Below are positions 482-63,417 of a stretch of 64,000 nt of DNA, in pieces. Positions within the stretch are counted from its first letter, which is position 1, and the number at the start of each line of letters is the position of its first letter. The stretch is taken from assembly GCA_002633005.1 (NCBI GenBank), contig NMRA01000302.1:257760-321759 (forward strand), in the 5' to 3' direction. The DNA comes from Phoronis australis (Eukaryota > Animalia > Phoronida). Made by a program: the position numbers and the translations under genes. Below the pieces are notes generated by a model, which did no database searches, was not told the origin of the DNA, and saw nothing but the letters and a program-made list of their open reading frames with translations.

Positions 482-3400
482 AATAACCTCCCTTCTGAAC
501 TGGCTGGTTTCTATCTTCCTCAGTAGGTTGTCGTGTGGCTCGAGGTGGGCTTGTGTTTCCGGTGCCTACCATCACTTCACCGGATCGAACACCCGACAGG
601 GTCCTGCGCAGCACGAATCCGTGGCCTCCCTTTAAGCGTTGTTCAGCTACACATCTACTTAGAAAATATATTTATGACAAAGAAGGTGATGAAATATCGC
701 ATATCAATTCAAATTTTCTGAGTAAATTAAGAGTCATATTGACTAAAGACATCGACCTTGATGTTTTGGGATCCGTAACAGAAGGCTAAAATAGATGTGT
801 GATAAACAAAATGGTTCAATAGCGGGATAGCCGCAGTAAAAGTTACAGTTACATGAATTATTGCTTCTTTTTGAGTGAATTTTATCTCTCACAAAATCAT
901 GGTATTTGCATTAATTAAATGGTTACAGTACTAAGCTCAGAATTCTTCCCTGTGTATGTCAGCCAAAACCGATGTTCTTCCAGACTATAAATCAGTTCGC
1001 GCTCCTTTACCGCAATTTTTCAAAAAGAGATGGACTGAAAACTGCGCAAGTTCATCCATGAAAGTAAATAAACTGAGTATGTTTGATATGCATTGAAAGG
1101 ACGGTTATGGGCAAGATAACTTATTTTTTGAGATCAGCCATCAGGTTATGCGTGGTCACAGTTAGTAATAACAGCATAAAAACCCGACAGGTGTCGCAGT
1201 TTTACAGCTCTGTGAAAGCTAATAAATTAAAGAAATGTATCCTATCAAAATGCGTTTTTCTTTTTTAACCCTGGGTGTCTACTGTCGTTATTACACAAAT
1301 CGGCAACCCAATCCCAAGTCTTGAATTCGAAGAATTTCCCCTTTTATAATTTCTATTCCATGTGAGGACAAATTTAAGGTGAATTCCTTTTTATTTTGTG
1401 TTTTTGAGTTGAGTATTCTATGACATTCGCGGACGAGTAGCTGATTTCAGTTCTTACTTGATGATATCAAAAGAAGACGTACATATATGGGGTAAGAGTG
1501 ACGTAATACCTGTAGGATAATATCTCTTTAGTGTGATTGAAACGTAGTAGAAATTGAATAACACGGTTTGTTGTTATGCCCGCAATGTAACGATCGAGGG
1601 CGACCACATTAATTCAAACAAGTTTACGCTAAATATTTGAGTTTGGAAGTCTACCAAGTACCGGCAACTTCAGCGTTTTAAGTCGTCCAGTCCAAAAGTC
1701 AACTTTTGCTAAAGATCTGATATGAACACGTGAGCATTTTCTTAATTGCGCTGACAATTACAATGTCGTAAAATGCCGTTAGTTGGAGGTTTGTTAACGT
1801 CAATAAAACAAATACAATACATATACAAAAAAATAAAACAAAAACAGTACCTATAATCGTTTTCCACTTTTTGTGGTGTTTCTTTGGATATAATGACGGT
1901 CCAGCCCTGGGTGTAGATCGTCACGTTGTTAAGAGCCTTCACAATTTCTGATCGCCTGTCAATTTCATACAGTTTCACGGTATGATGTCCTGAAAAGAAA
2001 CGTTCAAGCAGTCGCCAGGTATCGACTGAAGCAGCGTCACGAAGCAATTTGACGAAAGAGTGTGAACAGGTGAAGTAAACAATGGCTAATCGACGTTTTC
2101 CTTAGACGTTTTCCTTTTAATAAGAGATATTGTCCTTTTTCCGCTAAAACGTTTTTTGAGATAATTGCTGATTGTGATAGACATGTTGAAATTATTAGCT
2201 TTGACAAAAAGTATGAAAGAATAAGGCTCGTCTCTTGGCCATTTTATTACAAATCGCAAAATTTCGCAGTTGTTCAGATGTTTGGCGTACCCACTTGATA
2301 TTTGCCCATTTGGCAGTTTGCTCCCATTGGTACCTGGTATTAAATTTGCTATTTTGCTCTACCCAGTTGGTAGGCAATCGACCAATATCCATGGTGCCTT
2401 CTATCAAATAATTATTTTTAGAGCCGTGACTCTGTACTTCCCAATACAACCTAAAATATACATCATAGTTGTGTTGTTTTTTGTCCCCAATAAATACGCT
2501 TAAATACCCTAAGGAACATGTATTGCAAGTGGTGTTTACTTCGACCAGCAGAGAGGGTGGCTGCCACATTTTTCAGCTCTCTTGCGCGCTGAGGCTGATC
2601 TCAGAAAAATCTTTTTTCTCCTTTTAAGGCGATTTGACATGTTTTTAACCACTTAAAAGATGCTATAAGTTATTGCATCAATCAGACTGCTCTATATTAT
2701 GATAGTTTTACTGTAAGAATAGATTTTTTCATTATCAAACCGGTAAATCCAAGGAAACATCGCCGGAACTGCTTCCGGTGGATTTGACCTCGCTGGTAGC
2801 AATTACATGTATTTATGAGACTGCGTTCACCCATGTCTCATCCTTTCAACCTATTAGAAAGCAACTACTTCCGGTCTTGTTGGGGCACTGCCAGATGAAA
2901 GAGAGGGAGCGAAGGAGGGATGGTGGGAAGGGGGGAGGCCCAGTGAGAGGAAGTGGAAGTGCGAGAGAGAGGGGGGGGTTATATACCAAGTGTGTCCATT
3001 TTTCCTACCTGGACCGGAGTCAGCCTGGCCTGGCATAAAATGAACTTTACACACAATCGTCAACTTTTTGCAGTCCTCCCTTGTGTCCCAGCCTTTCGAC
3101 ACTAACTGTGAAATACGGGGTGCCACTGAAACAGGTCCTTGAATGAATACGTTGTCTACTGGATTTAATATCTCTATACCATGTGTTCCATTAGCAAAAT
3201 CATAGCGGGATTTTCTCTAGATAAGCACATGGGCATGTTTCAGACTATTAAATTTTCAGGCGTGTTTTCGGAATAGGGGGGCGTCTAAATGGAAAGTCAT
3301 TGAAAGCTTTGCTGACATTTTTTTCTTAAAACTGTGCTTAAATTGTTATGTTAATAAGTGCATGGTTCGCTAACACCTTGTTCGTTTTCATAAATCTGAA

Positions 3401-6400
3401 TGCTCCATAAAACTGAATTTGCGAGAAAGATATGCCCCTGAGTGGGATTTTTGAGAAAATTTTCCGAATAAAGGCTCCACTATCTGGACACTTGGCACCA
3501 TCAGTTGTAACACCATATGATTTTCCGAAAAAACGGACATGGGCATTTCATTGGATGGGGTTATCCCGGTAACAATAATAAAAAGAAAAAAGAACAACTG
3601 TATTTTACGTTTGTACGCGCAGAGTAAGAAAACTAGAAACAACAATACTCTGCGCTTGCACACGTTTGCATAGGTTTGGATGAGAATACCACGTGACCAT
3701 AGTCCCCACATGATTAGACAAGGAAAACGTGATGGACGGCAGCAGGATGCAACGCACTCGGTGGCAAAACTATCTCGTAGTGAGAAAACTCGTCAAAATC
3801 ACCTGCTGTTATTGGGCATATACGGTGATGTCTCGTAGAATCTCACAAGATGTTGCTCTTCCAGCGATATATTACAGTAGCGTTATTGAACTTGACAGCG
3901 ATTTTCTGTGGTTACGAAAACAGACATGATCGGGAACAGGCTCAACAGGTTTACGCGCCTGTGGCCTGTTTCACTTCAGTGTACGGCAGTCGCAAGATTT
4001 TTGGCGTAATAGCGAATTTCGAACTTTGTAATGTACGATGCAGCTGAGATATAACTAAAGCGTATTTTAGTTTGACCGTACACTGTATTTGATCCGGTGA
4101 CACGAAGACGTGTAAAGGAAGACAAAAGAACGTCAAATTATTTTTAATTACGATTCGGTTGCACTGAAATCTGGCAACAAATTTTTTCCGTGAATAATGT
4201 GATTACTCTGGTAGTCCTCTTCGGTCGGTCTTCCATGTTGTTTTATCGAAAAAGAGCTCTCTGTTCTATTTATACATGGTCATCTAACTACTTTTCAAAT
4301 AAACATGTGAAAATAGACTCATAGTTTCAAACCACTGTATACACAAACTGAAGGCAGCAAAGAATTTAAATGTCGCTATCTTTACAGACCTTTTCTAAAT
4401 GAAAACTGTTTAAACCAACTTTCAAAATCACTGTTTACTGAACAACCCGATGTTCACGTACGTAGGCATTTGTGTATGTCCTTGTCAAATTTGTCCCACT
4501 TGTTGTTTCCAAGACAAGTGGCTTTGATGGCCTGTTTGTTCATAACATCGCCGTTTATTGCGAAGCCAGTTGCGCAATTGTGCGTTACCTTGATACCCTT
4601 GGCGACCTTTCCCGAGCGAGACGCCTTGTAACCAAAGTAACTATCGATTTCACACATGTCCAAACTCGAACTGACTTCTGCGAGAAAAATGAGACTGTCA
4701 TATCAAATAAAAAAACATAACATTTTCAAAATATTTCATCAGAGTGTCAGAATTCAGACCAAATTTCCACTTTACTCTGTAACTAAAAAGGTCTAAAACT
4801 TGATAACATCTTTATATTTGCTTCATCGACATGTCATTTGTTCAATGCACTGTTTGAAATACTTTAAAAGAAAAAATATTGAAAAGGGAACCTGCGCCCG
4901 AGGTTTAATCTCCAAACTTTAAATTGAACTCGAAATTATGTTTACTGTTTTAGTCAGACTTTCACCCAAATTAAGATTCTGTTAGCCAGTGCTCGAGCAT
5001 ATTGTGGTATACACAAAATGAGTTTTTAGTTCAACTTTTAACTGAGTTTTCCAAAGAGAAATATAATTGAGAAATGATGAAAAGTGACATTATTTGGTAA
5101 AACGGGGCAAATATCTTCAGAATGAGTTCATCCCCAAATGTGTATTGAAGAAAGCGTAAATAATCTCTGGTGTGTCAGTCAAATCATAATTCATGGAGGT
5201 TTATCCTTGACCCTACTCCTTTAAGATTCAGTCTAGTTCCGGGATTGACGTTTAAAAATCAAAATTTGGAAATTTTAGGGTTGATGGCTAAGTTTAACAT
5301 GTGGGTTAATCCGGACGCTTGCAATAACTCCCAAAATAAAACATTTCAAAACTCCTTTTAGCAATAACAACATTGTATTGAAGACCAGAAACAAAACATG
5401 GTGTTCAACAGGGGGCACCTGTACAGTTTTGTGTCAGGACGTGTGGTATGACGATAGTTCACTCACCAGCAGGCCGAGTTTTCCCGAAAACTGAAGACAG
5501 CGCACTCCAGTAGGGATTGGTGTTCATGTTTATTTTACCACGGACCGCCATCAAGTATTCGGTGTCAGGGACGAGATTTGCAATAACATGCGATATTGTC
5601 TTAGAGCCCGTGACGGAAGTATCGGTGAAATTAACTAGCTGCAATGTGAGAGTTCATAGTCAGATTTTGACAGTCTTCGTAAAAATATTTCAACTTCAGA
5701 AGAACTAACTTGTCCATTTTCAATCTTAAAAGTAGCAAACAGAGGAAATGAATGAGTGTTAAAATTTATGATGAAAAAGTTTGCATCTTTGTTGGTAATA
5801 AGTTTGCTGTGGCCAAGAACAGGTCTCATCCATCTTAACATTGATATTAAGTTCTGTCATTATAAATTTCTCTCGTTTGTTAGAGCCTTTAAAAAAGCAT
5901 AATCCATTTACCACACTCTTTGGTCAACAAATAGAAATGGTTACATTTTTTTCAAAAACGACACCAAAATAATTTTTCATAACGTATTCAATTTCAGAAA
6001 AGAAACCGATCGAAAAATCACCGGTTTTTGTCCACGATAGTTAAACTCAGTGTTTTATTGCCCTGACGTCATCGATAATGCGGTAATTTTCCTGCTCCAT
6101 ACCAAAGAAGCTGAAAACCTAAAATCCTGCCTCCCGTTCAGTACCGCTATGACCTCGCTAAAAAGCAAGACTTCGCGAGATTACGTGATAAATTGCCGTG
6201 TAGTTTAAATGAGAACACGTGACTTTGACTAGGATTTAGCTAGGTCCTAGCGTAGGTCCTGGCGTCTACTGAACGCACGCCTGATATGGAATGATTACGG
6301 CAACTGCGATCTATGTACAAATCTATTGAGGAAGAGAGTTTGCACGGCCGCTTGGCCAATTAACAAGTGATGATTGAAATCCTTGAAAGCAGATAATGCC

Positions 6401-15400: not shown

Positions 15401-17975
15401 TGGCAGCTATTCATCTCGCTCACTTTGATATTGACCGCACATGTCAGCCGTAGGTCCTGTCCCACATCTATTACAGGGTCATTTGGCAACAAAGTCACTG
15501 GAATGAATAATAAATGCAAACAAATCAGATTTTTATACAAGATTCATTTCTTTACGTTGAACACCAGATCCACATGTGGGTTCAGCGGGTGCTCTTGGGC
15601 TTGAATCGTTTCCATCAAAATAAAATACCATACCGAAATACATGGCACAAAGCACTTGAAAGTATTCATTTTTCTACGCCTGAGTTTACTTACGAGACTC
15701 TTACTAAGTTAAGTTAAAAGAACCTTCATACAGATGGCTTTTAAAGCAGTGACGTCATCAGCCTTTCTCTTTTGAAGATGAATAGAGTAACATCTATCAA
15801 GGACATAAAAGCTCATAATAGCAATTACGGTGCATCACAATAAAAATACTTTAAAAAGAGAAATTCCTTCCCGCACTGAAAATTGAATTATACCATTCTT
15901 AACATACATGTATATACCAGCAAGCCTGTGCTTTTGAAGCGGGTCAAAATTAAACCATTTTATGACACGTTTCAGTGCCTAAAATTATAAAATGTCCACA
16001 TCGCCGGAGTTGTGACGGATAACTTGGAAATGGTGACGCAAATAAACAGGGCACTATATGTACTTTTATGAACAAGATATTCCATTTGTCCTCTCTACTG
16101 CATCCTATACTGGTGAGATTTCCCATGGAAACTGGCTATCTGGGCCAGACGCAAGACACTCGAGAATTTGGCAAGGTCAGTGGTGATCAGGCGAGTAGAA
16201 AACGGCAAGCGAAGAGGTGATTGGTCAACGAGGCTGGAAAGTTGAGTTACGGGATAGAATTCCCGATTCTGTTTAATGACCTAAGATATCTCGCCACATG
16301 TGTCTCGTGAGTGTCGTGCGCTTGTAGAATGCACCCCCTGGGAACTCGGCAGTGCAAACGCAACCAAATTCCCAAAAACTTACAGCCACAGCGCCTGAAA
16401 GTGGCGTCGATAGGTGTCGCTGCACAAGTCAGGAGTAGCGTTAAAGTGAACGTTTTCACAGATGACGGACGCGCGGCAGCTGCAAAGACGCATAATTACA
16501 AAAGTCATTGCAAAATGTAATTCAGTGACAAGAATTCAACAAGCAAGTAATGGGATTGAAATTTAACTATGTTGCTGTAAATAAAAATAGCCGTTCCTTA
16601 TACTACACCGGGTATTTGGAAATGTTTCACACATGGAGAATTGAATGAAGTCGATTATTTCGTCAATAAAGGGCAAACTCCAAAGCAAACCAATGTGCTC
16701 ACTGATTGGTTAAGACTGGCTCAATTTTGAATCTCTAGTTAACTCACGAACGTACACGGAGACTGTAGACACTGCTAAGCCTGCACCTGAAAGAAGCAAC
16801 CATGCGATACCTACTGTATATTGAGATTCCAATCTACCTGAAGTGCTGCGGTCTGCAGTGTTTGAAATGCAGATTTTAAAACATCTGGCTGGATTACGGC
16901 TGTTATTTGGGCGAAATATAATTCGGCGTTTTCATAGTCTTTGTCGGAATTAGATGAAAGTAGATTGTTACCGTGTGAAACAATCTTAGAAAATGTTATG
17001 CTGTTATGGGATGATGGAAATTAAGCTAAATATTTGTTAGCATCTGGTAACTGACTAGAAGATGTAGACATTTTAGTTTTTGTAATGTACTGTACACTTG
17101 AGCATGTGGGCTGGAGCATTTTGTATAAAAAGAAATAAACAAATCCACATTTTGATTGCTTTGTTAAGGAGTGAAAGTATAATTAAGTTTTTCCTTTCCT
17201 ACGATCGATAGTACATTACATGCGTGACTCGGCACAAAATGTCCTAATAAGACGTCATGCAATTTACTTTTTGTAAGCATAAGCATTTCGGACACGATTC
17301 ACAGCGCACAGCACTGTTTTTGTGTGCAAAATAACAAGTGGAAGGGTAGCGTATCACTTAGTTCTCTAGACACTATTTCAAAGTCATGTATTCACCGAGA
17401 GATTTTGGGTAGATTGACATGTGCTTTGAGGTAGACTATTAAAACTAGACCTCGCCTTATGTAATTTCATTTATATACTATTATCAATGGGTAGCCAACT
17501 TCGTCTACTACCATAGCAAAAGAGTTGCAATCTGTGTCTAGTCACTAGCGGCGCCTCCCGAGTTATTTTTAGGGTACACTGCACGCGCTTTGATTGTATT
17601 GTACATGTACGTCTGCTGACTTTTTTTGTTCTTCTGTAAAACGTGACGTTTTCAGTGGCATTGCTTGAGCCATTGTCGACTGCTCATGTGATGTGGAACG
17701 GCTTTTTTCAATGTCTCAAAAACTTTCGTAGTGCTAAGCAATAAAATACGTATTAGAATTTACCGCCCTAATACACTGTACAATTATCGGGTACTGTGAT
17801 CTAGGTAAGAAGTGAATGGCGCCTCCGCATGGAATTCATAGGCGAAATATGGAATCTGTTGTTTTGAATATGGTCATGCATGACTTCCTCTCTGGGGATT
17901 TCCAACAGAGTAGATACATATAACGAGTTTCTAACCGTTTGCTGCTTTTCAATACCTACCTTTGATGTAGCACAT
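482..17975 (-). CDS. Gene A (3' end off-window): class I cytokine receptor-like surface protein, SP + Ig + CHR (2x FN3) + sushi/CCP + Ig + Pro/Thr stalk; 589 aa in window
   Basis: Hand-spliced coding exons, all GT-AG with an open frame: 17975-17960 (MCYIK), 16479-16384 (signal peptide), 15497-15343 and 15187-15046 (Ig, LLPNDPVIDVGQDLRLTC...VRCCYNC), 12975-12840 (TCMSQNFYDMECKW, the C-x9-C-x-W CHR hallmark; absent from ORF track), 11658-11423, 9238-9069 (KPDRVQKL...LNVTWRPP), 5638-5467 (LVPDTEY...PYWSALS), 4677-4462 (sushi, 4 Cys plus KWD), 3125-3009, 1989-1851, 654-482 (second Ig ending NDYRCVA, then stalk; phase-1 donor GTGAGT). Exon lengths match paralogs B and C. First micro-exon is the least certain. 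Confidence 0.85.
2280..2400 (+). mobile_element. Ngaro terminal-repeat fragment
   Basis: TTGCTCTACCCAGTTGGTAGGCAATCG is shared with about 39113-39140 and nearly with 48968-48995. Confidence 0.55.
6135..6282. mobile_element. Short MITE (Harbinger-like), family with at least 4 copies in the window
   Basis: Inverted ends CGTTCAGTA.CGCTA.GACCT / AGGTCCT.GCG..TACTGAACG; absent in B at about 21210. Related copies at about 13708-14070, 28550-28915 and 38830-38988. Confidence 0.65.
6945..6996 (-). pseudogene. Orphan 3' remnant of the FN3 exon (GMVFEIIYFTKLRTDEK plus donor) inside gene A intron 7
   Basis: Homologous to the 3' ends of exons 9238-9069 and 22131-21962. Keeps the GTACGA donor but lacks the 5' part and acceptor; lies in a duplicated intron segment. 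Confidence 0.75.
7342..9009 (+). mobile_element. Kolobok-type DNA transposon, non-autonomous, with degenerate THAP ORF (about 7504-7740)
   Basis: TTAA|AGGAGAATG...CATTCTCCT|TTAA termini. Empty site gagctTTAAatacaatc in gene B (about 21884-21900). THAP-like VPACPNY..FFQLP..WLAVVK..LRVCGRLF with a frameshifted start. Confidence 0.8.
9893..11285. mobile_element. Non-autonomous TIR element, gene A-specific insertion
   Basis: CTCCAACCTTATT (9899) is inverted as AATAAGGTTGGAG (11266-11278). Flanks are nearly contiguous in gene B at about 22860-22880. Confidence 0.65.
12400..12480 (-). mobile_element. RNase H fragment of a non-LTR retrotransposon
   Basis: HSVRTHVGIDGNENADEL matches the RNase H motif W(V/I)PxHVGIxGNExAD; segment not present in B. 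Confidence 0.5.
13421..13470. repeat. (GAT/GAC)n microsatellite; equivalent copy at 28272-28325
   Basis: Direct reading; same intron position in A and B. Confidence 0.9.
13708..14070. mobile_element. Same MITE family, inverted; shared with gene B (28550-28915), so it predates the A/B duplication
   Basis: GTGCGTTCAGTAACGGTAGGACCTA...AGGTCCTAGCGTTATTGAAC at the equivalent intron position in both genes. Confidence 0.55.
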
Positions 17976-18242: not shown

Positions 18243-18273
<31 letters not shown>

Positions 18274-18286
18274 CCTCCCTCCCTCN
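18243..18286. repeat. (CT)n/(CCCT)n microsatellite between the gene B 3' flank and the gene A upstream region
   Basis: Direct reading; includes the ambiguous base n at 18286. Confidence 0.9.
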
Positions 18287-18962: not shown

Positions 18963-21900
18963 TCAATGGGAAAGTGTCGCTGCGGCCAAAATCAAAGTAA
19001 GCATGGGTGGTTCGGTCATCTTTGCCTTGGTCCCTGTGTTCTCTATACTTGCGTCCATTTGTTGGTTAGCGGGGTAGTGTTCCACAGTCTTTCCTTGAAA
19101 TTGCACTGAAAACAATTATTGTACGAGACATTTGTTTCGACAAAATGGTAAAACTGAATGCTGTTCATATCAATGGGAGCTAAATATCATTTGTATGAGT
19201 AATAGTGAAGCTAGTGGGTACCATGTTTCTGCAAGAAAGGCCAGTTCGTGATTTGTACAAGTTCCAGTTGGAAGACTAACCAAAGTTAAAAGCAGCCCCA
19301 GAGCAGGCACTTTTTCGGGATCGTTTGGAATGTCTGGTATTATGGAAATGTATGCAAGAAATCAATGTTTTCTCTTCTATATTGGTGACCACTAAAATAC
19401 TTTAAACTTGTCCTTTACTACCAGTAGCGTCACGATATTTCATTTACAGCAGGCAAATTGGCTGTCGACAAATCGCGATCGAAAACACGGCAAGTGATCT
19501 CAGATGAAATTTGTCGTCGTCACTAGAGAGATCGTGCGAGTGGTTTAGGAGCTCACCTGTAGTCGCAAAATTAATGTCTTATAGGTTTGCTTGTCCCAGT
19601 GAGAACACATCTGTCAGTTACCGTGATTGTGGCTATTAGTAAACTCATTAGCGAATCCATGCGAAAACGGAAATGTATCGTCATTTTCCTAATATGTACC
19701 AATATGCCAAATTTCGTGGAAATGCATAAAAATTTGAGTGTGCAGAGGCAAACGTAAAAAATAGATTTGCCACCGGGGTACAGCGATAGGCAGATGTGTC
19801 CAAAAATCGTCGTCGACTGTCTTCGTTCAACGAAATAATTGCCAAATTTAACAAAGATCCCGTAAGGGGCTTAGTAGAAACAGACACGGACTCAAAAAGG
19901 CACTAGGGGGACCGCAGTATTCGAATAAAAAATTAGTGTCGATCCTACTTTTTTTAGTTTGAACAAATCTGCCAATTTCCATGATTCTTCAGCGGTGGGT
20001 TTCGCGGAATAGATGGTAAAATGGCCGGATGGAGGACGGGGAGACTGATGAAATTCCACTGGGCGGCTAGTGGCGGACATTGCTGTTTCTAGGACGGTGA
20101 CGACAGTTAGCAAGCATGGGCTTACAAGAAATCAAGAACGTCCGCCATTGAATGAATACTCTATGCTTTTTTGCTTCCTCGACTAGACGCCCGCTAGGTA
20201 TCGCTGCCGTCCATGAAACAATAACGACTGCGACCAGTGAAATAACATGCAATCTTCCTATTGTCTATCCATCCAAAAATACATGTAAAAAGACGTTGTC
20301 ATGAAAATCCGTCAACTATTCCGAAGATACAGAGGCCAACGTGAAAACTCACCCTTGCGTTCCCTTTTATAAAATAAGATTACATGAAATCTTCAGAATT
20401 GCGCGTAGGCCTACATACGTGAAAGGGTTTTGAATATATATGTACAGCAGGGTACGCCTGGCGGACAGCCAGACAGACGGACAGACGGAGGGACAGACGG
20501 AGGGACGGGCATCACAGTTTTGTGTCAGCACGTATGGCACGACAATAGTTCACTCACCAACAGGCCGAGTTTTCCCGAAAACGGAAGACGTCTCACTCCA
20601 GTAGGGATTGGTGTTCATGTTTATTTTACCACGGACCACGATCACGTATTCGGTGTCAGGGAAGAGCTTTGCAATAACATACCATATTGTCTTAGAGCCC
20701 TTGGGCGAAGTGTCAGTGACATTAACTGTCTGCAACGTGAGAGTTTGTAGTCATATTTTTAACAATCTTCGGAAAAACACTTCAACCTCAGAAAAACCAA
20801 CTTGTCCATTTCCAGCTTAACAGTTGTAAACAGAGGAAATGAAAGAGTGTAGACATCTTTTTATGAAAGTGTTTGCATCTTCGCTGGGAATCAGTTTACG
20901 ACTAATTATATATATGGCCAAGAACAGGTGGCTTTAATCTTAAAATGGAAATTAAGTCCCGCCATTTTAAATTTCCGAGATCAGAAAACAGCCTAGAGAA
21001 ACGTTCTCTCGTTTTTTAGAGCTCAGAATGAATGATAAGGCATTTACCACATCCCTTGGTCAACAAAACAGAAATAATTACATTTTCCAAAAACAATTCC
21101 ATCATAATATTTCTTAGTGAATTCAATTTCAAACTGATCTTCCAGCATTTTAAAGCCCTGAAGTCATCGCTAATGTAGTAATTGCCCTGCTCCACATAAA
21201 AAGAGACTAAATCCTGATATCGAATGATTATGGAAACCGCGATCTACGTGCATGTACAAATCAGTTAGGGAAGACAGTGTGCACGGCCACTTGGCCAATT
21301 AACAGGTAATGATTAAAACCTTTAAAAACAGATAATGCCCTGTAACCTAGCCAACACGTGAAAGTTTAAAAAAACCTTAAGCCGCAAACCTCATTAAAAC
21401 TCTAGGTAAATTTGGTCTGGAAAGACCGCCTGCCCCAGAAAAGAACCCATGTTGTGACACAGCAAGACAGGGTTTTACCTCTCAAGCATTTTGAAATACA
21501 AGTTTCTTGCGAGAAAAACTAGATCCCGCAAGACAATTTTTAAAAAATGACGCAAGTGTTCTATTAGCAGCAGCCACTATACTGATACTACTCAAGGAGG
21601 TCCACGTGCGTAACACATCTACCTTTCTCATGTAGCCCCGTTTTCCCAGGTCTTACATGCATAACTAACCTGTGTACACCAACAGTTACTCGTAAAAAGA
21701 GACGAAGAAAACAAAGATGTTTCATTAAAAACCATGATAGTTATACAACCTTTTAAGTTTGAGCCAAATCTTCAGGAAAGTTGATGACCCGGCAACGTTT
21801 ATGTCAAGAACTGTGACTAAGAAGTCATAAAAGACCTTCGGCGAAAGGACTGTCAGTGACAGTCAATCAAAGACCTGTGACAGGAGCTTTAAATACAATC

Positions 21901-51140: not shown

Positions 51141-54100
51141 TTAATGAGAAATTATCGCTGCCACAAAAATCAAAGCAACGATTGCTGGTCTGGTCATCTT
51201 TGCCTTGGACCCTGCGTTCTCTGTACTCGCGTCCATTTGTTGGAAGTGGGCGTAGGGTTCTACGACATCCTCTCCTTGAGTTTTCGCTGAAAACAATTGA
51301 ACGAGACTTTCGTTTCTACAAAATGTTACAAATAAATGTTGTTCATGTCGATGAACACTAAATGTCATTTTTGCCTGACCGTGAGGCTACTGCGAACCAT
51401 GTTTCTGCCAAAAAGTCCAGCTCTTGATTTGTACTACTTCCCGTCGTAAAGCTAATCTGAGTCAGGGTGCTAATCATATTGATTTCTGGACTCGGCCGGG
51501 AAGCAATGACGATTCCGTATTGCTTTTGGCCACATTCAATCGTCGGCCACAGTATTGCCGTGCCTTTAGGAACACGAAGCTATATTCAAAATATGGCTTT
51601 TTCTCGGGGCCTCGTTTTTACCCTAGAGTTTCGCGTATTGGAACCCCCGCCTAAGTTTCGCACTTAATCTTAAAGTGAAGTCCTTTGCATAGGACCGTAC
51701 ATTAATTCATACTTAGGAGCAGCCGTTTCTTCTCAAAAAGTTGTCTTGCTTTTCATGAACAAATTTGTAGCTTACTGCCGCCCATTTAGGCCCATGAGCT
51801 TGCATCAGAAATGAAGTCTTTTTCCACGGCCTTACTTTACCGAAGTGGTTCCTATATTAGCGCATTCGCCAAACCGCACAGCAGCGTTGTTCATCAGACG
51901 CGCATAGACCTCATGGCGCGGCAATACGGTAAAACGACTGCTGAGTCAAGTCGATGTCAAATGGGCCTTGACTCGAGCTCAGCCCAGGACAAGATAGTGT
52001 TACGGACTCGGATCTGCACTGCTGACCTGTCTGGTGCATTTATACTCTTGAGCAGGGCGACTACAATGCATTGCAACAATCTACTCGGTTACATTATGAC
52101 ACATTTCGATGGCTGAATATTGAATATGCAAAAGTAAATATGAAGACTTGCTTCCTGTCGGAACCCATCAAATGAGAATGACATTCCCGTTTGAGGTCAG
52201 AAATCGCATTTAAGGGCCTGGTTGCTTTCTTCACAAACTCACAATAACGTCTCTTCATGACAACAGGGGGCGATGGGTTCTTCCTATCGTCCTTGGGTTT
52301 AGAAGGTGGAGGTGTCTTTATTTCGGGTGTCTCCACTACGCCCTGTCTAACACCCAACAAGGTTCCGCGCACTTTGAATCCGTAGCCTCCCTTTAAGTGT
52401 TGCTCGGCTACACATCTACAGGCAAAATATATCAATGATTAAAAGTTGAATAAATCACCGACCCAAAAAAGTGGATCAGAAGAAAAAAGCAAATCTGTGA
52501 CAAACAAAATGAAGAGCAAAATATTAGTTCACGGCAATGTTGATAGCGGGGAAGCTACATGTATGATGAAACGTGCAGGAACAGATATTTATTGCATCTC
52601 TGCTCTCTTGAATACTTTCTCATACACTCGCTCGCATTTTCTGTACAGTTTTCCAGCAACAGGTGTACAGTTAGGAAGTAAATCACCAATAGGCATGACA
52701 AACAAATGAAGTATTTTTCGAAAGCACGTGTCTCGTCATCAGTCTCGTATTGAAACGAACATGCTAGAAGCAAAATGAACAGTGAATTCAGGCAGATAAG
52801 CGTACGGACAGTAAGTGCGAATACCACACACGGTGGGAAGCCTACAACTCTGGGAGTGATTAACAGAACAGCCAGCGTGTTCTAAACCGCTGGGAGGCGC
52901 TCATTCATCAAAATGTTGTTATAACTGATCAGACTCCAAAATCGTCAAGAGAAATGTGTCATTTTCAGCATAAAAGCGACCCTTTACTGTTTCTTTCTTA
53001 GTCATTTTCCGAACAGTGATGTAAAAATGGTCTTTAGTGAACACATCCTGCAAATATATGGACAACTGTCGAGAAAGTAGGTATTCCGTGTGCTCAATAT
53101 AACGCTGCTCACGATAGTGAGGACGAAGACATGCACTGTACGCCAATATTGCAAATGAATTCTTAAAGAACGTTCTGTCTGCCCACTTGGGTCGCAATCG
53201 GGGTTGCTTTTCCTAACAGTGTTTGAAGACTTTATGTTCTGATAGTAAATAATGGCACCTAGTTTGCCACCTGGTTTGACGACTTATACATTGTCCCTTA
53301 CACGCTTCTTAACCACTCGTTCGTCACTAAGATATTCATTAAATATAAATGTACAGTTCTCATAGCACAATAGCGTCCACACAAAGACTTATCTTAGAGT
53401 AAGTTACTCTTAGAACGTACTGTTGCTACTAGGATTGAGGACTCTGAACGCTACTGGGCTATTTCTGAAACTTGCCGCACGTGACAACTCCACCATATGG
53501 AGTTGGAGTAACTTATTCTAGGGTAACCGCATTAGTGTAAGGTTTAGTGTCAATCCTAGAGAGAAAGGACCTAATGTGGTTATTAACAAATAATGACTTA
53601 ATAATAGCCATTTTTATTTTTTGTTTTTGTTTTTGTTAAATATGCTTGGCGTGGAATACTTTCTAATCATATGACCTGCTGCGCCCTCCTTAGGTAACTG
53701 GTCGAAACCGTAGAATAGAGGAGTTCGGGACAATTATTGTTCAGGCTTGCAAACGCCTTTCCCGGGTTTTAATATTTCTACTAGAAATGGAACTCGAAAT
53801 CATATTTGGTATTTTCTACTCTACCTTTTAGCAAACTCAAGTTAAGTGACTATTATTCTATGCTCGAGTACACAGTGACATACGTGGATAATTTTTAGTC
53901 ACTTGATAAAACCAAAATTAATACCAGCTGCGTTATTTGAAATTATGGGGCCATTATTTAGAGGCTACTGAATATTTTGCCCATTTTTTGGTTAAAAGGT
54001 GAAGTAGTTTTGAAGAAAATTTTTTTTTAATCTTTATCTAATCAATGAAATTCTCTATCAGAGGACAATCTTTGAATGTCCAAAGGGGGGCCCGTTAACT

Positions 54101-57100
54101 TTCACTGGAGTGCCAAAATTCAGTAAACTTTGCTCAATTTTGATCTTAGTCATTTTTTGTATGCTTCGGGTGCCAGTTTGCGTTTTGTTTGTAAAAATAA
54201 GACGCCAATAAGTGCAAAATTGGTGATTTTTGTATCAGAGGCACATCATGATTACTTAAATAAAATTTAAGCTATATCTGGAAGATTATCCCTAGAGTGA
54301 TTTTTTTATTTCTTTTGATTTTCTCGTGGAATGACCATTAACACTTCTTAAGAGAGGACACGTGACGTTAGAGTGTGGCAATAGGCTACGTCTTTCTAAA
54401 AAAATACAAAGCCATACCTATAATTGTTTCCTTGTGTGTACGTGGCTTCCTTGGATACAATCACTGTCCTATCTTCACGGAGGAGCTTGACATCGTGAAT
54501 AAGCTTAATGTTTTTAAAGTCGCGGTCCGTTTCATACAGGCTCACTGAGTTTGGCCCTGAAAAAAAACTGTCAGTCACTTGCATTGGCTGTGTTCCAGAA
54601 ACGCAAGAATCTCATGAAGCAAATCACTGTGGTCACTGGCTTCGCTTGTTACGCATAGAGTCGCTCGAATTTTCGGATGACTCATAACCATATAGCTATA
54701 AGAAAAATAAAGGTTCGACACTAAAACTTTGCGGAGCCGAGGCTCCCAACTTCCACTGTCCAAAATCCAAATGAAATCTGCGTGCACCTCCCTCAGCCTG
54801 GTATTGCATAAACATTCGAAGCCTTATCTTTACTTGATCCCATTAATTGTCCTCGAGAGTAGTGAATTGGCGATGGAATTTCCAAAACAATCTCAAAACT
54901 CAGAATTCAAGGACCTAACATAGAAAACATGGCGGATTTCAGTTGTTCTTCAACTAGTACGCCTGTCGTAAGTGAAACTTCAAGTTTGAGCAAGCAACCT
55001 ACATTTCAAATTCAATAATTCTAATGCAGAAGTTACACACACACACACACACATACTCACACACAAAGTAGATAAACAAACAAGTAAATAAATTAAACAT
55101 AAATATATATGTATGTGAGTGTGCGTGTGCGTGTGCGTGTGCGTGTGTCAAGTGTTCATTTTCTTACCTGCACTGAAGTCAGCCTGGCCATCCATAAAAT
55201 GGGCTTTACAGAAGATCGTCAATTGTTCACCGTTCTTTTTATTTTTCCAGCCCGGTGATGCTAACGTCGAAATGCTGGGTGTCCCTGAAATAAGTGCTCG
55301 TCTACTGAACCAAACCTCTAGAGACCAACCGAATAATATGTTTGATTATCCACACCACAACGACAATTGTGCTATCGACATGCTGAAGTTTGTCGGAGTT
55401 TATGACCCCTGTAAACTAAGATCGTCATTTCCAAGTCATATCTCGCACAAATTAAAATAATCTTTGTTACTGTTTTTTATTGATATTTTTGAACAATTTT
55501 TGTTTAATCTTCGCTTAAGTTAGGCAAACAGTCATCGAAAAAGACAAGTGGAAATGACTCTATTGAGGCACGTGTCCTAACAGCTTTGCCAATGCTCAAC
55601 CAACCTCTAAAAGGTACACTTTATGTCATAATATAGTCTGACAATATTTTTAGTTGTATTGTTTTGTTTTGTTATTCTGTTCGATTGGCATGACCCCTGA
55701 ATTAAGAACAGTGATGATGTAATTTGTTTACTATAAAATAGTGTAGAACTTTCTAGAAGACTGAGGTCAGAACAGTGATGATGTAATTTGTTTACTGCAG
55801 TATAGTGTGGAACTTTCTAAAAGACTTTAGCATGACAGTGATTAATGCAGTCTGGAATATTCTAGAGAATAGTATATGTTTGTAAAATGGATGGGTAGAT
55901 TCGGGAAAGTTCTAGAATGTGCTTGAAAGTTCCAGAACAATGCATTAGGCTATAAATACACAAGCACGTGTTTGTGATGGTGAGATCAAGTCAAAAGATC
56001 AAGTCAGTTCAAGAGGAGATCAAGTAAGTTCAAGAAAGTTAGTCAGGAGAAATACAGTTGAGTTGCAGTGAAGAGAATCAGCAATTACAACGATAGTCAA
56101 TAGAAAGCCAGCTATAGAGACAGCAGGTTATTGAATCGACGAGTGTAACAGTTGTTCATCACAAGTCGAGGCTTCGCAGCACTGGCTGGAGCATAACCAG
56201 ACATTACGTCGGACGTTTTGTTTGAGTAGGCTTGTGAACGTACGTTCGGGATTAACAAAGGATTAACTCGAACCAGTCTTCAGTCAATCGTTGCACCGAA
56301 AGCTATTAGCACCGGTCTGTAACAACCTGCGCCCACCCACAAACGGGGAAAAACGTTAAACTTAGTAACTAGAGCATTATTGGTTGAAAGCACTAATTAT
56401 TCTGTTTACTTTTCCGAAAAGGTTGAAATTAATGGTACACAGATTGAATTGAATTAAATGACAATTTAATTAAATTACAAATTTAACTAGGATATATGGG
56501 ATGGTGTCCCGCCTGGAGTTTCATAACAAAGAGCACTCTTAAAGGAAATTTGGAATTTATTTTGAAACATTTCGATAATTCATTACTCTATTTTCACAAA
56601 CATTTCTAATTATGGTCTGCACGTCACCTCTTTAATATTTTCACATTCATATGAACTTACTTTATCGAATAATTAATATAAATCACTTTAAAGTCGTTGT
56701 TCTGTTACATTTTACGTATATTTGAGTGAGATAGTTTTGCAAAAATTGTCTTCCTAAGAAATATGAGGGGAAGTGCTGAGTTGATACTGTAGCCCGCGAA
56801 ACTGTGCTGTAGATCATCAGTTGGGAACTCGTTGAAGAATTTTTATTGAACATCAAGCGGGAAGCGCGTTTACATTTTTATCCAAAACTTGCATCTGGAA
56901 CCAAAATATCGAATGAGGTATTATTTTATAAATATGGCAGAATGTAATTTAATTTAAAATGTCTAGCTTATGAAGGTTTTGTACTTCTGTAACTTTTGGG
57001 TTGGACATGTTGTGTGGTGGCTTAAAAACACGACTTCAATAAGAATACATGTATAGTTTTTGAATCACAAACATTTCAAGGGGTTTGAAGATTTTTATTG

Positions 57101-60045
57101 AACTAGAGTTTGTCTTCAATTTTGAAATTTGAGAGCTTGAAAAGCTTAGAGTTACGTTACACTTTCGTGTAGGCGTCAGAATTTTTTTTTTAAATAAGGG
57201 TAAAATAAGAAAAAAGAACCTGCAATGTTCCCTCTATGTTCAAATCAGGCAGTTCGATGCGTGATCCGACCGCTTTCTCCGGTGGCCCACGCGTCTTGTT
57301 TTTTGTAGAATTAAGGCGTTCTCAACAATTGTCAATACATGGTCATTCAATCATTTTCCAATAAACCACCCACAGAATTTCAATGCGGTGTATCGAATTA
57401 AAGTGAGTGAACCTTTTTCTAGTTGAAAAAACGTGTATACCACCTTCCAAAATTACTGGTAATCGAACGACCGGATGTGCACGTACATTTGCACTTGTGT
57501 TTGTCGTTGTCAAATTTGTCCCACTTGTTGTTGCCCATGCACGTCGATTCGATTGCATTATCTTTGCGTTCCTCATCACCGTTGAATTTGTGGCCACGCG
57601 TACAATCGTGCGTTACCTTCACACCCCTCGCGACCTGTCCCGTGCGAGACGGTTTGTAGCCAACGTACTCTTCGATTTTACACGTCTCTGCAATCGAATT
57701 GCGTTTTACAAATGACTTAATTCGACTGCTCATTATTGTCTGAGGCCCGTTGGGCTACCACACCATTATTTCAACTGGAAGTAATAAATTGAAATCAATG
57801 AAATGTTTTTGTTTACACAAATGTCTAGTGTTTAATCATGAAAACAGGCGAGCTCTCCGCGGAGAGGAAAGTTCCGAAAGTAGTTACCGGTAATTAGTTT
57901 CTTCACTAGCTGAGTCGCTCCTAAGGCAACTGCGAACCTTCGTTACAAAGTGTATTTTTGTGCAAATATCTTAAATTCTGTTAGCTCTCACCCCTTTAAA
58001 AAATTTTAGTGTACGGCCGTTTTTGCACAAAATACCCCCAAAACATCGATAATTAAAAATATAAGGCCTATTTTAAAAATCTGAGAGAAACTGTTCCCTC
58101 GAAGATGTCATTATCAACATGTTGACAAAAGAACAATTTGATTGGAGGAGCGATATTTTTAAAATTTTTAGTAAAAGTTAAAGAAATTTTACTGAAAACG
58201 AACCTCTCGTAAAATAAGAATAATAAATTATGAAGAAAACTTATTCACCTTTCAGAAAATCATATTTCATAGGAGTTTGAGCAAACAGAGTTTAAGATAT
58301 TTGCACATAAGTGCAAACTGGTAAACAAGGTTCACAGCTACCGTAAGCGAAATTATAAGTCAAACTGACACTTTCGCCCTGCCATAAATTGAATAAGGTG
58401 TTGACAGAGCAAACGCCACTTACCCGCGCGCATGGAGTCATCGGTCTGGATGGAACAACGCTAGCGAAAACGCATGTAGTTTAGGAGTAACTCAAACCTC
58501 CAACAAAGCGCCAGCAGACTTTACTCCTCTGATCGTTGACATTGTTGGCGTTTTGGTGCTAGCGACGGTACCAAAACGCTAGCGTTTTAGCGAGCATGTG
58601 AACCCGTTGAGAATGTGGCAAGGCAATGTTAGACTATTTTTAGGAATTAAGTGTATACACGTCAACGCTGCACTTCCTCTGATGTCAATGATAACCCAGT
58701 GACACTTTAAATTTTGCACGTGACACACGATATTCTTACCTCCAGTGGCCTGAGAAATGAGGATGCAGATGGCAATGTGTACCGAAAACACAACTGAAAC
58801 AAAATGTGAAATAACGTGCATAAGTCTCGCCTCAACATTCCATGATCCGCAGATATCATAAAGTGTTTTGAATCATCAGGGTTGGTTGACCCGCTATGCC
58901 GCTGTATGCCCGATATTTCTTTCCTTTACCCTTCCTTGAACTTCTAGTATTCCCAAGTTAGTAGCCAACATTCCGTCGTTCTTCGATTATAAACAACGTT
59001 ATTTTAAAAACTGACACTAAATTATGTGAAGGGCACTCAAATAACATTCGTGGGCGCGCAAAAACAGAGCTTTGGAATTGCTTCGGGAGCGTCCGTGAAA
59101 ACCTGGATGTATGCCACAAAATAACGTCCTCGATTTTGGGGTTTTGAATTTTTTGTCAGATAGTGTTTGATTTTACTTTATTTCTGTTTCTGTTGACAAA
59201 GGACGTTATTACATCCGAAAATTTTAGTTGATCCATTCTTGTTGTTTTATTTACCTACGCCAGAAGGCAATTCATGCAGAACGAACAACTGTGGACGAAA
59301 CACAAAGGTTTATTTAGAGCTAAATAGAATGAACGACACCAGCACAAAATGGCAGACGGCAGAGAGAGGACGCTGACTACAGCGAAAAGACATCTGGCGG
59401 ACTGGCGCTATTTATATTTTTTTGACATTCTTGTCGTCAAATCGCCACTCAAAGGCAATTTTATCAAGGTATTCAAAGATTTGTTGCTGATTTCGTAGAG
59501 ATCCATCAACAATTGAGTGGAAAACTCTGAGCAGATGTGTTAGTAGTAGTGAGCGACATCAGTGGTAATCGAGGAACAGATAAATTCAAGCGTCTGTGGA
59601 TTTTGCATGTACCCCGTCAGGTCGTTAGCTCATCAGGTTTACAAAAAGTCATGATCAGATGTTAGAACCTTCGTAGCAACAACCTTGCACAATGTCGCAT
59701 TCGGCAGCTATTGTTGCCAACCATTTGGGAAGAACAGCGCCAAAATACAGCTAGTGGGCGGTGGCAGAAAATGATGTTAATGTTAAATAGATTTCGAAAT
59801 TTCACATAATGTCGACCGGGAGACAATAAATACCCATTTCGACAACTAAGGTCACACCAATTCCTCGCGCTTCTTACGGCCCTGGTGCCATGATGTGATG
59901 GTATGGAAGTTCCGTGGTCAGCATCTCGCCATGAGTTCCGATATTCAGGCACATACAGCTTGTTTCTATCTGATCGGATTTTTGTAACTGGTTGCAAACG
60001 TGCACTAAACGCCTAATACCTACTTTTGATGTAATCCGCGAACAT
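51141..60045 (-). CDS. Gene C: SP + sushi/CCP + Ig + Pro-rich stalk + putative GPI-anchor signal, 283 aa; paralog of the 3' half of gene A
   Basis: Exons 60045-60024 (MFADYIK), 58793-58740 (IVFSVHIAICILISQATG), 57687-57487 (sushi, TCKIEEY...CMGNNKWDKFDNDKHKC), 55284-55168 (117 nt as in A), 54556-54418 (139 nt as in A), 52415-52243 (173 nt as in A), 51286-51141 (...ENAGSKAKMTRPAIVALIFVAAIISH*). Total 852 nt, open frame. Confidence 0.85.
53385..53530. repeat. Small palindromic element
   Basis: TTATCTTAGAGTAAGTTACTC versus GAGTAACTTATTCTAGGGTAA, inverted. Confidence 0.45.
55035..55148. repeat. (CA)n and (GTGTGC)n microsatellites
   Basis: Direct reading. Confidence 0.85.
55624..56370 (+). mobile_element. 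Putative solo LTR
   Basis: Starts TGTCATAAT; has TTCTAGAA repeats, an internal duplication of about 63 bp (55706/55769), TATAAATA and GATCAAGT repeats. No clean CA end or TSD found. Confidence 0.4.
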
Positions 60046-61779
60046 TGCACACCGGTCGAAAACTTGCATGAAACGCACAATGTTACCTTTCGAAATTAAC
60101 ACGTGGCCATACAATCATGATCTGTCATTTGCAGTTTGCTACTTATCAAGCATGATCGTGAAGCGAGAAGCACGGGCCTTGGATAAGCAACATTGGTCTT
60201 TTTCACGTGTTGAGTGGGTGATAACATACATGTACGCACGATTATTGTTTCGCTGCAAATAGGATGAATACAATTTCAGTCAACAGCTGACGAGAACTAA
60301 GAGAAATGATATCCCAAATTAAATAAGAACAGGGATACTTTACTATTCATTTAATTAAACCCAATTGTTTCAGGTAAGGTTGCCGAAAGCTTTGCAGTAT
60401 TACTTTTGAAGCCCCCAGGACCGTACGACAGATGTCACAATTCGTGAACGAAATTGTCAGAAACAATAAACGATGATCATGCATGCAAAAAGGTGTCTAG
60501 AGAACCAAACCTTTGCAGTTTCTAATATTAGTCTTCTGCATTTAAGAGTCTGATAGCGCTTGACCTCGTCTTCTAAATCAGTCATATTTTCGTGTCTATA
60601 GTTGATGTTGAGAAAGCAAAGGGCTCCAAATCACGCATCCACGTTTATTTGTTCAATTTATCAAACTTTCTCAAGTCGGACTTGCGGCCCACAGAACAAC
60701 AGTAATGCTTAGTTGCCACTGGAAGGACGAATGTGACCGCAAAGACTTCTAAATAATCAGACAACAGCAAATAACGTGTAAAACTCCAATGGCACGAAAA
60801 CGAGGCAGGAAATGTGCCTGACGAATGTTCACGCATTGTTTGTAAATACGGTGAGATGCGAATGTTACTGTGTAATTCGGGACGGCCCTATCACATAAAA
60901 GTTGTAAACATGGATTTTCGGTGTTATAGACATCTAAAAGTGCGTTAGGATTCGCCGTTTGAAAGTTTGTGAAATGGATAGTGTCACATTTGAGATGCAC
61001 ACTAAAGTTGACTGGGGAAGGTTTGGAGTGTTTTACAGGGGTGCAGGAAAGCTGGCCGAACTTTTTGCAAGAGGGCAGGTTGACATTATCAGGAACGATT
61101 ATCTCAGGAGCTAACGGAATTAGGAAACATGTTTATCGTACGAAGATACATAGTGAACTTTGTCACTAGTCAGCTCCGATTATGCACAATTTCGGTTGAC
61201 ATGCTGCTCCGTCCAGCAGCCCCGTGTCTACAGCACTGTCTGTCGATACACGCTAGGAACCTCACAAAATTTAAAAGGACAACAAACCACGTTTTGGCCT
61301 CTCAGATATTTAAGCGACATTCACATCCAATTTTGTAATAAAAATAGTGCTTTGTAACCCTGGACAGTTCTCAAAAGTTAGTGAAGGAAAATTTGAAAAC
61401 TCCTTTCGATGTCTACTAAACGGGTGACTGAACGAAGATTGGTGAAATCATCGAAATCGGGTTTAGTATCCTTTAAACACCATTAGTACACTATGAGCTT
61501 GTGCCTTAAAATTGAACTGTATTTTAATCGAATAATTGTGCATAGTTTTCTATGGGTTGTTGATTGATTTCACTAATGCGTCAGTAGCAAAATGTAAACT
61601 CATACGCAAAATAATATCCACTCTTCGTGATCGTCAGACGGAAAGTATGCCGGTGCAACCAGTCCGTATCAACAATTAACACTTGCGTGCCTGTGCCACA
61701 GTCTGTGTGCCTTGCGAACTCTAGCCAGCCAGCTAGCTGCAGCCAATGCTTAGTTCTCTAAATCATTCAAGGGTTAGTT

Positions 61780-62190
61780 TTTTTTTACCCAATAGATGTA
61801 TGAAGACTATCATCAAAATTCACCTATAGGTACCACTGTGCGCTTGAGCTTCATTAGACACCAAAATTTCACACAGGTCGGGACTGCCCGGGTAGTTCTG
61901 CTCGTCACCTCGCTGTGAAAATTCCGTCAACATGTAGATGTCCGCCATGTCGATGATATCTTTGTATATTGTTCACGTGGTGAACTGTTATACCTTCAGA
62001 CCTTCCTTGAGACCAGTTCTATATTAAAGTTCAAGTATGAATTGCCTGTCTGTGAAAAGTTGCCTTTTTTCGATGTCCTTGTACACTGTTGTGACTATGG
62101 GTCTCGCACTTAAGTTTATCATAAGCCTACATATATTGGTACCCATTTACATGCCAAAAGTGATTGCCCTGAACGCTTCAAGCAAATCCA
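61780..62190 (+). mobile_element. Penelope-like element RT fragment
   Basis: From 61940: RHVDDIFV...SSILKFKYE...KLPFFDVLV...T*VYHKPTYIG...SDCPERFK; not in the ORF track. Confidence 0.8.
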
Positions 62191-62732
62191 CTGGCCCGAA
62201 ACAACGGGTCAGGGTGTGCTTCGAGCGCTGGCCGTCTACGCCGTGTATGCAACCCTCTCCCCTCTAGGGATGTGCAAAATAGCCCCTCTTCTTCTCATTG
62301 CTTCTCCCGTAATCTATGATAAAATGGAAATGTTTAAGTACTTCGACAAGACAGGAGAACACTCCCTCTCATACCCCTGGGTTGCTAGACGAAGAGCACG
62401 TTGTTAGTGTGACGTCAAAAGAGCATTGTGTGAGTACTCGCTTCCCTTTGCAACCACCATTCGCTCCCTACACCCTTGAACGTAGCAGCTTCTTATCGGC
62501 ATGGCAGCAAAAAAGTACATGCGTATAACATTTGTACAACAAACTATCAAAAAATTTTCTAACAACAACTACGTTGAATACGAAAGTGTTCTGCCAAATC
62601 TTTCCAAAATTTAAGCTGTGTGCCATATATTGTCCTAAGTCTTGTTAGTTTTGTTTCATCCATTCCAGTATTTGGTTCCTGGAAAATCAAAATTACTCGT
62701 TGCTTTACATTTGAATTTAAGAAATCCCCATC

Positions 62733-62914
62733 GAGGGGTAAGGGTGACACAGGTTCCAGATACTAGTCTGTTACTTCATTTTGATGCACCTGAGGGGTAA
62801 AGGGGACAAAGGTTCCCATACAACTAGTCTGCTACTTCATTTTGGTGCACCTGAGGGGTAAAGGGGAAACAGGTTCCCATACAACTATTCTGCTACTTCA
62901 TTTTTGGTGCACCT
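62733..62914. repeat. Tandem triplication of an approximately 60-bp unit downstream of the gene D stop
   Basis: GAGGGGTAA..GG..AC.AGGTTCC.ATAC..CTA.TCTG.TACTTCATTTT..TGCACCT units of 59, 61 and 62 bp. Single copy in the B and C flanks. Confidence 0.9.
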
Positions 62915-63253
62915 GAAATTTTCGACTCGTTTGCATATTTTACGGAGTTGTGTGAAGAACGACATTCTCCAGAAGAAACTTTCAAGAGAAAAATTTACTT
63001 CAAAAGTTTTGCTAGATGAGTGTAGTGTCACAAGAGGTCGACTCAATCAAACTGAAATTGTTTATTGTCTATTTTGTGTTGCACGTTCACTTGGTTCCAG
63101 CTAATGATCGTAAGAATTTACTTTTTTATTCGGACCCCACTAGAAAATTCGAGTAAACCATCGAGTTTCACTAGATGTGAATGGTCAGTTTGGTGGTAAA
63201 GCGACACTTGATTAATGAGTTTCCTGCGCTTCTTGATTTTACTGATATGTGCA

Positions 63254-63417
63254 TTAATTGGAAAGTGTCGCTGCGGCCAAAATCAAAGTAAGCATTGCTG
63301 GTTCGGTCATCTTTGCCTTGGTCCCTGCGTTCTCTATGCTTGCGTCCATTTGTTGGTTGTCGGCGTAGTGTTCCGCCTCCTTGTTTGCATCTACCACAAA
63401 CGTCCCTTGAATTTGAG
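63254..63417 (-). CDS. Gene D terminal exon (GPI-signal-like) of a fourth paralog lying right of the window
   Basis: ttttcag acceptor, phase 1, QIQGTFVVDANKEAEHYADNQQMDASIENAGTKAKMTEPAMLTLILAAATLSN*. Flanking intron 63420-64000 aligns with the last intron of gene C (about 51290-51860). Confidence 0.8.

Follow-up and report, generated by a model that had tools for sequence, protein, structure and literature searches.

An expressed tandem cluster of exon-shuffled genes for cytokine-receptor-like, sushi and predicted GPI-anchored proteins in Phoronis australis

The genome of the phoronid Phoronis australis carries a cluster of four paralogous genes, here called A, B, C and D, which are built from exchangeable exon blocks. 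The window, that is, the whole stretch of DNA analysed, comprises 64 kb of contig NMRA01000302.1 (GenBank assembly GCA_002633005.1, positions 257,760 to 321,759 of the forward strand), with a GC content of 40% and a CpG o/e of 0.90, values that would suit an invertebrate; all positions given below are window positions, and read counts given as two numbers are those of the RNA runs X1/X2. The four genes all lie on the minus strand, and their 29 modelled exons (12 in A, 9 in B, 7 in C and 1 in D) have canonical AG/GT ends and no internal stop. Once joined, the exons give open frames of 589 aa in A (incomplete), 423 aa in B and 283 aa in C. Gene A runs off the window, and the tail exon is the only part of D inside it. 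Gene A encodes a predicted signal peptide, an immunoglobulin-like (Ig) domain, a block resembling the cytokine-receptor homology region (CHR), a sushi domain, a likely second Ig domain and a stalk. Gene B is made of signal, Ig, CHR and tail, and gene C of signal, sushi, Ig, stalk and tail, the tail being a predicted signal for a glycosylphosphatidylinositol (GPI) anchor. The modelled features are as follows.

17960..17975, minus strand: gene A exon 1, start codon, MCYIK (gene model; reads join the exon only to B-type exon 2 letters)
16384..16479, minus strand: gene A exon 2, predicted signal peptide core (gene model, hydropathy)
15497-15343 and 15187-15046, minus strand: gene A Ig-like domain 1, two exons (gene model, RNA junction, sub-threshold Pfam LIF-R_Ig-like)
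12975-12840, 11658-11423, 9238-9069 and 5638-5467, minus strand: gene A CHR-like block, four exons (C-x9-C-x-W, WSALS, RNA junctions)
4462..4677, minus strand: gene A sushi (CCP) exon (Pfam Sushi below cut-off, ESM Atlas, RNA junction)
3125-3009, 1989-1851 and 654-482, minus strand: gene A likely Ig domain 2 and stalk, three exons (gene model, RNA junctions)
46233-46218, minus strand: gene B exon 1 (gene model; B-type junction letters in reads)
36658-36548, minus strand: gene B signal exon (gene model; B-type junction letters in reads)
33935-33781 and 29927-29786, minus strand: gene B Ig-like domain 1 (gene model; 87-90% nucleotide identity to A)
27823-27697, 23242-23007, 22131-21962 and 20729-20558, minus strand: gene B CHR-like block (gene model, C-x9-C-x-W, WSETS)
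18963..19105, minus strand: gene B terminal exon, predicted GPI signal (gene model, tail geometry, RNA junction)
60045-60024 and 58793-58740, minus strand: gene C exon 1 and signal exon (gene model, RNA junctions)
57687-57487, minus strand: gene C sushi exon (gene model, RNA junctions)
55284-55168, 54556-54418 and 52415-52243, minus strand: gene C likely Ig and stalk (gene model, RNA junctions)
51286-51141, minus strand: gene C terminal exon, predicted GPI signal (gene model, RNA junctions; whole gene 51141..60045)
63254..63417, minus strand: gene D terminal exon, predicted GPI signal (gene model, spliced reads)
18286, no strand: isolated N next to a CT microsatellite, in the stretch separating B from A (beyond this base, the DNA downstream of B no longer resembles that of C and D)

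This layout agrees in most points with an earlier note made from the letters of the window, which had described four same-strand paralogs. The first micro-exons that it had picked out are found at 17975 (A, MCYIK), 46233 (B, MCYIK) and 60045 (C, MFADYIK), each with a GTAGGT donor, and the terminal exon common to B, C and D is borne out by the gene models. The second exon of A, B and C, which carries the hydrophobic core of the predicted signal peptide, had been absent from its list. Its statement that all cassette boundaries are phase-1 introns holds for every block boundary modelled, namely signal to Ig, Ig to CHR, CHR to sushi, sushi to Ig and stalk to tail.

The RNA data consisted of three raw-read runs of one study (X1, X2 and X3) and a contig run (X4) with the same species label. 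About 18-19% of each raw-read run was examined, with 400-20399 and 50600-64000 as alignment targets, so that only the last exon of B lies inside the aligned stretches and its other joints are visible through cross-mapped reads. Mapping RNA reads to the junctions had been suggested in the earlier note, and spliced transcripts were indeed found in two of the three raw-read runs, X1 and X2. At least 8 of the 11 introns of gene A are among those listed, two of them with two variant letters and one imprecise. The junctions and their read counts are: 654|1851 (281/230), 1988|3008 (267/249) and 3125|4462 (326/297) in the sushi-Ig half, 5636|9069 (69/60) and 9238|11423 (114/97) within the CHR block, and 15186|15342 (194/163) within the first Ig domain. 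The CHR-to-sushi junction is spanned by 224/226 reads and the imprecise junction of exons 5 and 6 by 55/36. The two variant letters occur at the CHR-to-sushi joint and at the joint of exons 7 and 8, so these reads would come from an allele or a close paralog of A; the 5' junction counts of A may also include reads from B. A loose read end lies at 482, where the last exon of A in the window stops. For gene B, two of the eight introns are seen, through cross-mapped reads carrying B letters: the joint of exons 1 and 2 (45/24 reads) and the CHR-to-tail joint (161/148 reads). Its terminal exon has an additional loose end with 118 reads. All six introns of gene C are exact in the reads, the signal-to-sushi joint with 444/418, and the terminal exon of D is expressed and spliced to an exon beyond the window in 375/365 reads. 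Binned exon depth lies at about 30-900 for X1/X2 and does not exceed 2 for X3, and the read direction agrees with minus-strand RNA in a stranded library. None of the exon junctions was seen in the contig run X4. That the exons are chance open reading frames is ruled out by the RNA junctions. Taken together, the gene structures, the phase-1 block ends and three diagnostic junctions show that these are expressed, spliced paralogs made of exchangeable exon blocks.

Two side observations concern gene C and the stretch between D and C. Exon 5 of gene C (139 nt; window 52415-55168) is skipped in 24/13 reads, which would shift the frame; these could be loosely mapped paralog reads. Between D and C there is a 127-aa open frame on the minus strand (60752-61132), which has no RNA depth and is probably not a gene.

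Comparison of the genes with one another gives some idea of how the blocks were exchanged. Genes A and B have exons 1-8 in common; their six Ig and CHR exons are 87-90% identical in nucleotide sequence (dS 0.23), and their introns are 76-80% alike over long stretches, a likeness that ends 44 bp into intron 8. The terminal exon of B best matches that of D (91%, dS 0.17, versus 77% to C), and the last 165 bp of its last intron are 83% identical to D and 75% to C. The sushi-Ig half of A is 58-75% identical to C (dS 0.71), the intron match covers only 72 bp, and the acceptor of A lies about 18 nt upstream of that of C. Judged from these comparisons, B would be a chimera of A-like exons 1-8 and a D-like tail, or else a further C-like copy would have given A its sushi-Ig block. 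A and B cannot be alleles, given introns that are 76-80% alike and different 3' halves. The earlier note had put it that A equals B plus C; this holds for the architecture only, and a literal fusion of B with C is ruled out by a divergence between A and C much older than that between A and B. The dN/dS is 0.50 over 330 codons for A and B and 0.59 for A and C, a picture consistent with coding constraint combined with fast change; two of the exons compared between A and B, each of about 50 codons, reach 1.15 and 1.39.

The family is likely, and the cluster possibly, larger than the window suggests. The downstream homology of B to C and D ends exactly at the N at 18286, which is likely a collapsed assembly gap, and more genes may therefore sit between B and A. 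Among the loose read ends there is a third CHR variant at 11539, together with 5' UTRs of mixed kinds and at least two further C-type sushi starts, and A-type reads differ from the window sequence near junctions; alleles and paralogs are not separable in these reads. The exon preceding the tail of D ends in TVTSNNFELS (a 30-letter read end, translated by hand), which does not resemble the exons of A, B and C. The 177 reads leaving the last exon of A in the window run into a sequence unlike the terminal exon of B, C and D; the 30 read letters, translated by hand, give S-YPTDMRLDG, which aligns loosely with YPANQQMDA of the terminal exon of B (3/9 identical). The family is thus likely to have more than four members and more than three architectures.

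Some introns of A and B hold repeats and mobile elements. Intron 7 of A contains internal duplications (6870-7040, 6280-7342), including a decayed partial copy of the 3' end of exon 7 and its donor region. Intron 2 of B carries a 1.7-kb element missing from A (34143-35846), with 171-bp inverted repeats and TTAA ends, which encloses a THAP open reading frame (Pfam E 9e-16); the combination of TTAA and THAP is what we take to suggest a Kolobok-type transposon. In intron 3 of B (about 30200-31600) there are pieces of a broken long-terminal-repeat retroelement (RT_RNaseH matches), and in intron 1 (about 40000-42700) a frameshifted element with a coiled-coil ORF1-like piece, LINE-like as classed by eye.

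Turning to the proteins, the tails of B, C and D were scanned by hand for hydropathy and geometry. Together with the predicted signal peptides of B and C they show the features expected of GPI-anchored proteins: Asn at a candidate omega site, small residues at omega+1 and omega+2, a spacer, and a short hydrophobic C-terminus, with 24 residues after omega. The tails end uncharged and hydrophobic, with nothing beyond and no cytoplasmic part, and a membrane span followed by a tail with Box 1 is absent from B, from C and from the last exon of D. These three proteins are accordingly predicted to be GPI-anchored, which agrees for them with what the earlier note had claimed for the family; the next exon of A differs from theirs.

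The domains were assigned with tools that saw single exons only, and with Pfam 18 of the 23 exons have no match at E 1. The sushi domain is the best supported: it is encoded by a single phase 1-1 exon of about 60 aa with four Cys and a Trp, it scores 0.96 in the ESM Atlas (recognition 2426, with the 10 best family matches all in one clan), and it matches the Pfam model at E 0.0081 (17 bits against a cut-off of 20.7) and CR2 in a PDB sequence search at E 0.012. The Ig domains named in the earlier note are backed here by pattern and sub-threshold matches. The first Ig-like domain matches the Pfam model LIF-R_Ig-like at E 0.098 (A exon 3), below the cut-off, and one of its exons gave only chance-level matches in a PDB sequence search. 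The second is likely an Ig domain, with the B-strand Cys and the F-strand Y-x-C in place and no C-strand Trp by eye; antibodies are matched weakly in the PDB (E 0.2-0.7), and Pfam gave no match.

The CHR block, which the earlier note had placed in class I of the cytokine receptors, calls for more caution. The motif C-x9-C-x-W is present in the first predicted fibronectin type III (FN3) domain of both A and B, and the block consists in both of four exons with intron phases 1-2-1-0-1, a gene structure that holds for class I receptor genes. The same four-exon pattern is stated for class II receptors (PMC8863823, 10.64898/2026.05.30.728932; here and below, statements on cited papers refer to their accessible text). 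The sub-threshold matches are arranged as expected, with LIF-R Ig on exon 3 and fn3 on exon 8 (Pfam E 0.063, single exon), and one CHR exon alignment matches FN3 structures in the PDB at E 0.05-1.1 and IL-2R-beta at E 1.1 over the WS region, all below threshold. The CHR exon searched in the ESM Atlas had no match there. AlphaFold2 models of single exons, from two-sequence alignments, have a pLDDT of 44.7 (CHR exon) and 42.7 (sushi) and are unusable as fold evidence. Homolog searches used queries of 66-78 aa of two exon types, CHR and sushi. Among proteins of 138-2000 aa, none of 12 candidates was a homolog of the second CHR exon of B, which, for so short a query, is weak evidence of absence; the same weight is given to the single match of the second CHR exon of A among 1.84 billion representatives, a repetitive unrelated protein, and to the sushi alignment, for which none of 229 candidates qualified.

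There are several known systems with which these proteins can be compared. CNTFR-alpha is GPI-anchored and passes its ligand to a signalling chain. The Drosophila protein Latran spans the membrane and has no sushi domain, and CD55 combines sushi domains, a Pro-rich stalk and a GPI anchor, a layout that C resembles with its sushi, Pro-rich stalk and predicted GPI tail. Gene B, like the vertebrate group 3 chains CNTFR-alpha, IL-6R-alpha and IL-11R-alpha, has a signal-Ig-CHR layout and no signalling tail (PMC1963337), its Ig being a sub-threshold call and its GPI anchor a prediction; unlike them, the Phoronis genes have degenerate CHR motifs and form a tandem set that swaps blocks, and the likeness seen is one of layout. 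CNTFR and the other IL-6-family receptors except IL6R have been found only in vertebrates, CNTFR from cyclostomes on (PMC13203501), so the resemblance to CNTFR-alpha is likely convergent. Tail-less chains as such have invertebrate precedents. Amphioxus GHRl/PRLRL is likewise an Ig-bearing class I ectodomain with no membrane span or tail and reported GH binding (PMC9010856, PMC12284397); it differs in being a single gene, possibly a split annotation, with GPI or sushi not mentioned in the accessible text. Latran is a short, non-signalling tandem paralog of Dome that antagonises Dome (PMC2914635), similar in being a tandem duplicate and different in being one gene. The CHD of Dome is encoded by a single exon, in contrast to the four exons of the CHR block here, and the sushi ectodomains of IL-2R-alpha and IL-15R-alpha bind ligand with no CHR (PMC1963337) and no Ig. 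Gene A joins CHR and sushi in one chain, of which no description was found in the literature searched. Neither sushi nor GPI is mentioned in the accessible text of one further source (10.64898/2026.08.17.745176). A tandem family of GPI-anchored CHR-sushi type, of which the earlier note had known no description, was not found described in a literature search with limited coverage of subscription journals and supplementary receptor lists; the cluster is apparently an undescribed variant built of known parts.

The reading we favour, at a probability of about 45%, is that these proteins go back to a gp130/Domeless-type receptor and serve as lipid-anchored, non-signalling ligand traps or co-receptors. 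Under such a scheme, the FN3 stem of the ancestor would have been lost along with the membrane span and the tail, the shortened gene would have duplicated in tandem, and recombination within phase-1 introns would have swapped blocks, B with its A-like exons 1-8 and D-like tail exon being one product. The CHR elbow would be the ligand-binding site of B-type chains, and for the CHR-bearing members the ligand would likely be a helical cytokine. A chain without a cytoplasmic part cannot bind JAK, and the nearest models are therefore a ligand-passing co-receptor or a Latran-like antagonist: a B-type chain might, like CNTFR-alpha, pass its ligand to another chain that spans the membrane and signals, or alternatively withhold it, as Latran does in antagonising Dome. 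The sushi-Ig blocks may serve as a second binding surface or a spacer, and the lipid anchor would permit shedding. The earlier note had proposed a set of non-signalling co-receptors, decoys or recognition molecules; the expressed exon-shuffled family, the CHR-like block, the sushi domain and the GPI-type tail stand, with the reservations that the CHR is divergent and that invertebrate non-signalling chains were already known.

A number of points weigh against the favoured reading. Class I domains are defined by C-x(9-10)-C-x-W followed by x26-32-C-x10-15-C and a slightly variable WSxWS (PMC1963337). The second Cys pair is non-canonical here, with x25-C-x49-C in A and x22-C-x49-C in B, and where WSxWS is expected there is WSxxS, the second Trp being lost (WSALS in A, WSETS in B); with C-x9-C-x-W present and these two features deviating, the block is best called cytokine-receptor-like, and not a canonical class I member. 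Three of the four CHR exon alignments have no PDB match at E 10. The C-terminus of A lies off the window, which limits the predicted GPI anchor to B, C and D. Gene C is without any CHR and the last-but-one exon of D is different again, so cytokine binding cannot be the function of the whole family. The strong, sample-limited expression, the many variants and the dN/dS near 1 in some exons suit recognition proteins at least as well.

This last point leads to a close rival of the favoured reading, somewhat less probable than it: a fast-diversifying family of surface recognition or adhesion proteins (for self/non-self, microbes or a partner cell), in which the CHR has been co-opted beside sushi and Ig without a cytokine role. 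The CHR-less C with its further variants in the reads, the third CHR variant, the deviating A-type reads, the depth contrast between X1/X2 and X3, the two exons with dN/dS of 1.15 and 1.39, and the degenerate CHR motifs would all fit. On the other hand, the overall dN/dS is 0.5-0.6 and the two high values come from some 50 codons each, the variants may be alleles as well as paralogs, and the CHR proteins in the cited literature, as far as its accessible text goes, all bind cytokines or modulate their signalling. A paired-receptor arrangement, in which A would span the membrane as a signalling or adhesion receptor and B, C and D would be its truncated GPI-anchored decoys, is in our view unlikely. 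The 177 reads past the last exon of A, and B as a truncated sister of A with a D-like tail, speak for such an arrangement, but the loose resemblance of S-YPTDMRLDG to YPANQQMDA means that the next exon of A may be a diverged GPI exon, and it is preceded by a low-complexity stalk, as in C. Least probable is ordinary Ig/FN3/sushi shuffling with a generic FN3 pair of no cytokine-receptor descent: the absence of a significant family, PDB or Atlas match for any CHR exon searched, the low-confidence model and the missing second Cys pair would allow it, but it would leave a rightly placed C-x9-C-x-W, the 1-2-1-0-1 layout and a WSxxS closing domain 2 to occur all together, beside an upstream Ig whose sole Pfam match is the LIF-receptor Ig model.

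If the reading of lipid-anchored traps or co-receptors is right, it would bear on how these receptors evolved outside vertebrates. Invertebrates have been reported with one or two class I receptors, two in Ciona (PMC1963337), and the expansion of the family and its CNTFR-type chains have been placed in vertebrates (PMC1963337, PMC13203501). A tandem set of well-expressed, tail-less CHR-like chains with sushi domains would then be an independent expansion and a CHR-sushi fusion, with two modules on one chain that the vertebrate IL-2/IL-15 receptors keep on separate chains. That an invertebrate lineage independently built a GPI-anchored repertoire of cytokine-receptor alpha type by swapping exon cassettes, including a CHR-sushi single chain, is a possibility we put forward tentatively. 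The cluster also documents ongoing exon shuffling, with breakpoints that can be located within single introns. For most class I receptors of invertebrates no ligand is known to us, and short, sheddable ectodomains such as that of B would be ready baits for these ligands. On the tentative view of an independent repertoire, the family would be a bait for helical cytokines of invertebrates, or else a polymorphic recognition system of a new sort, based on the fold of cytokine receptors.

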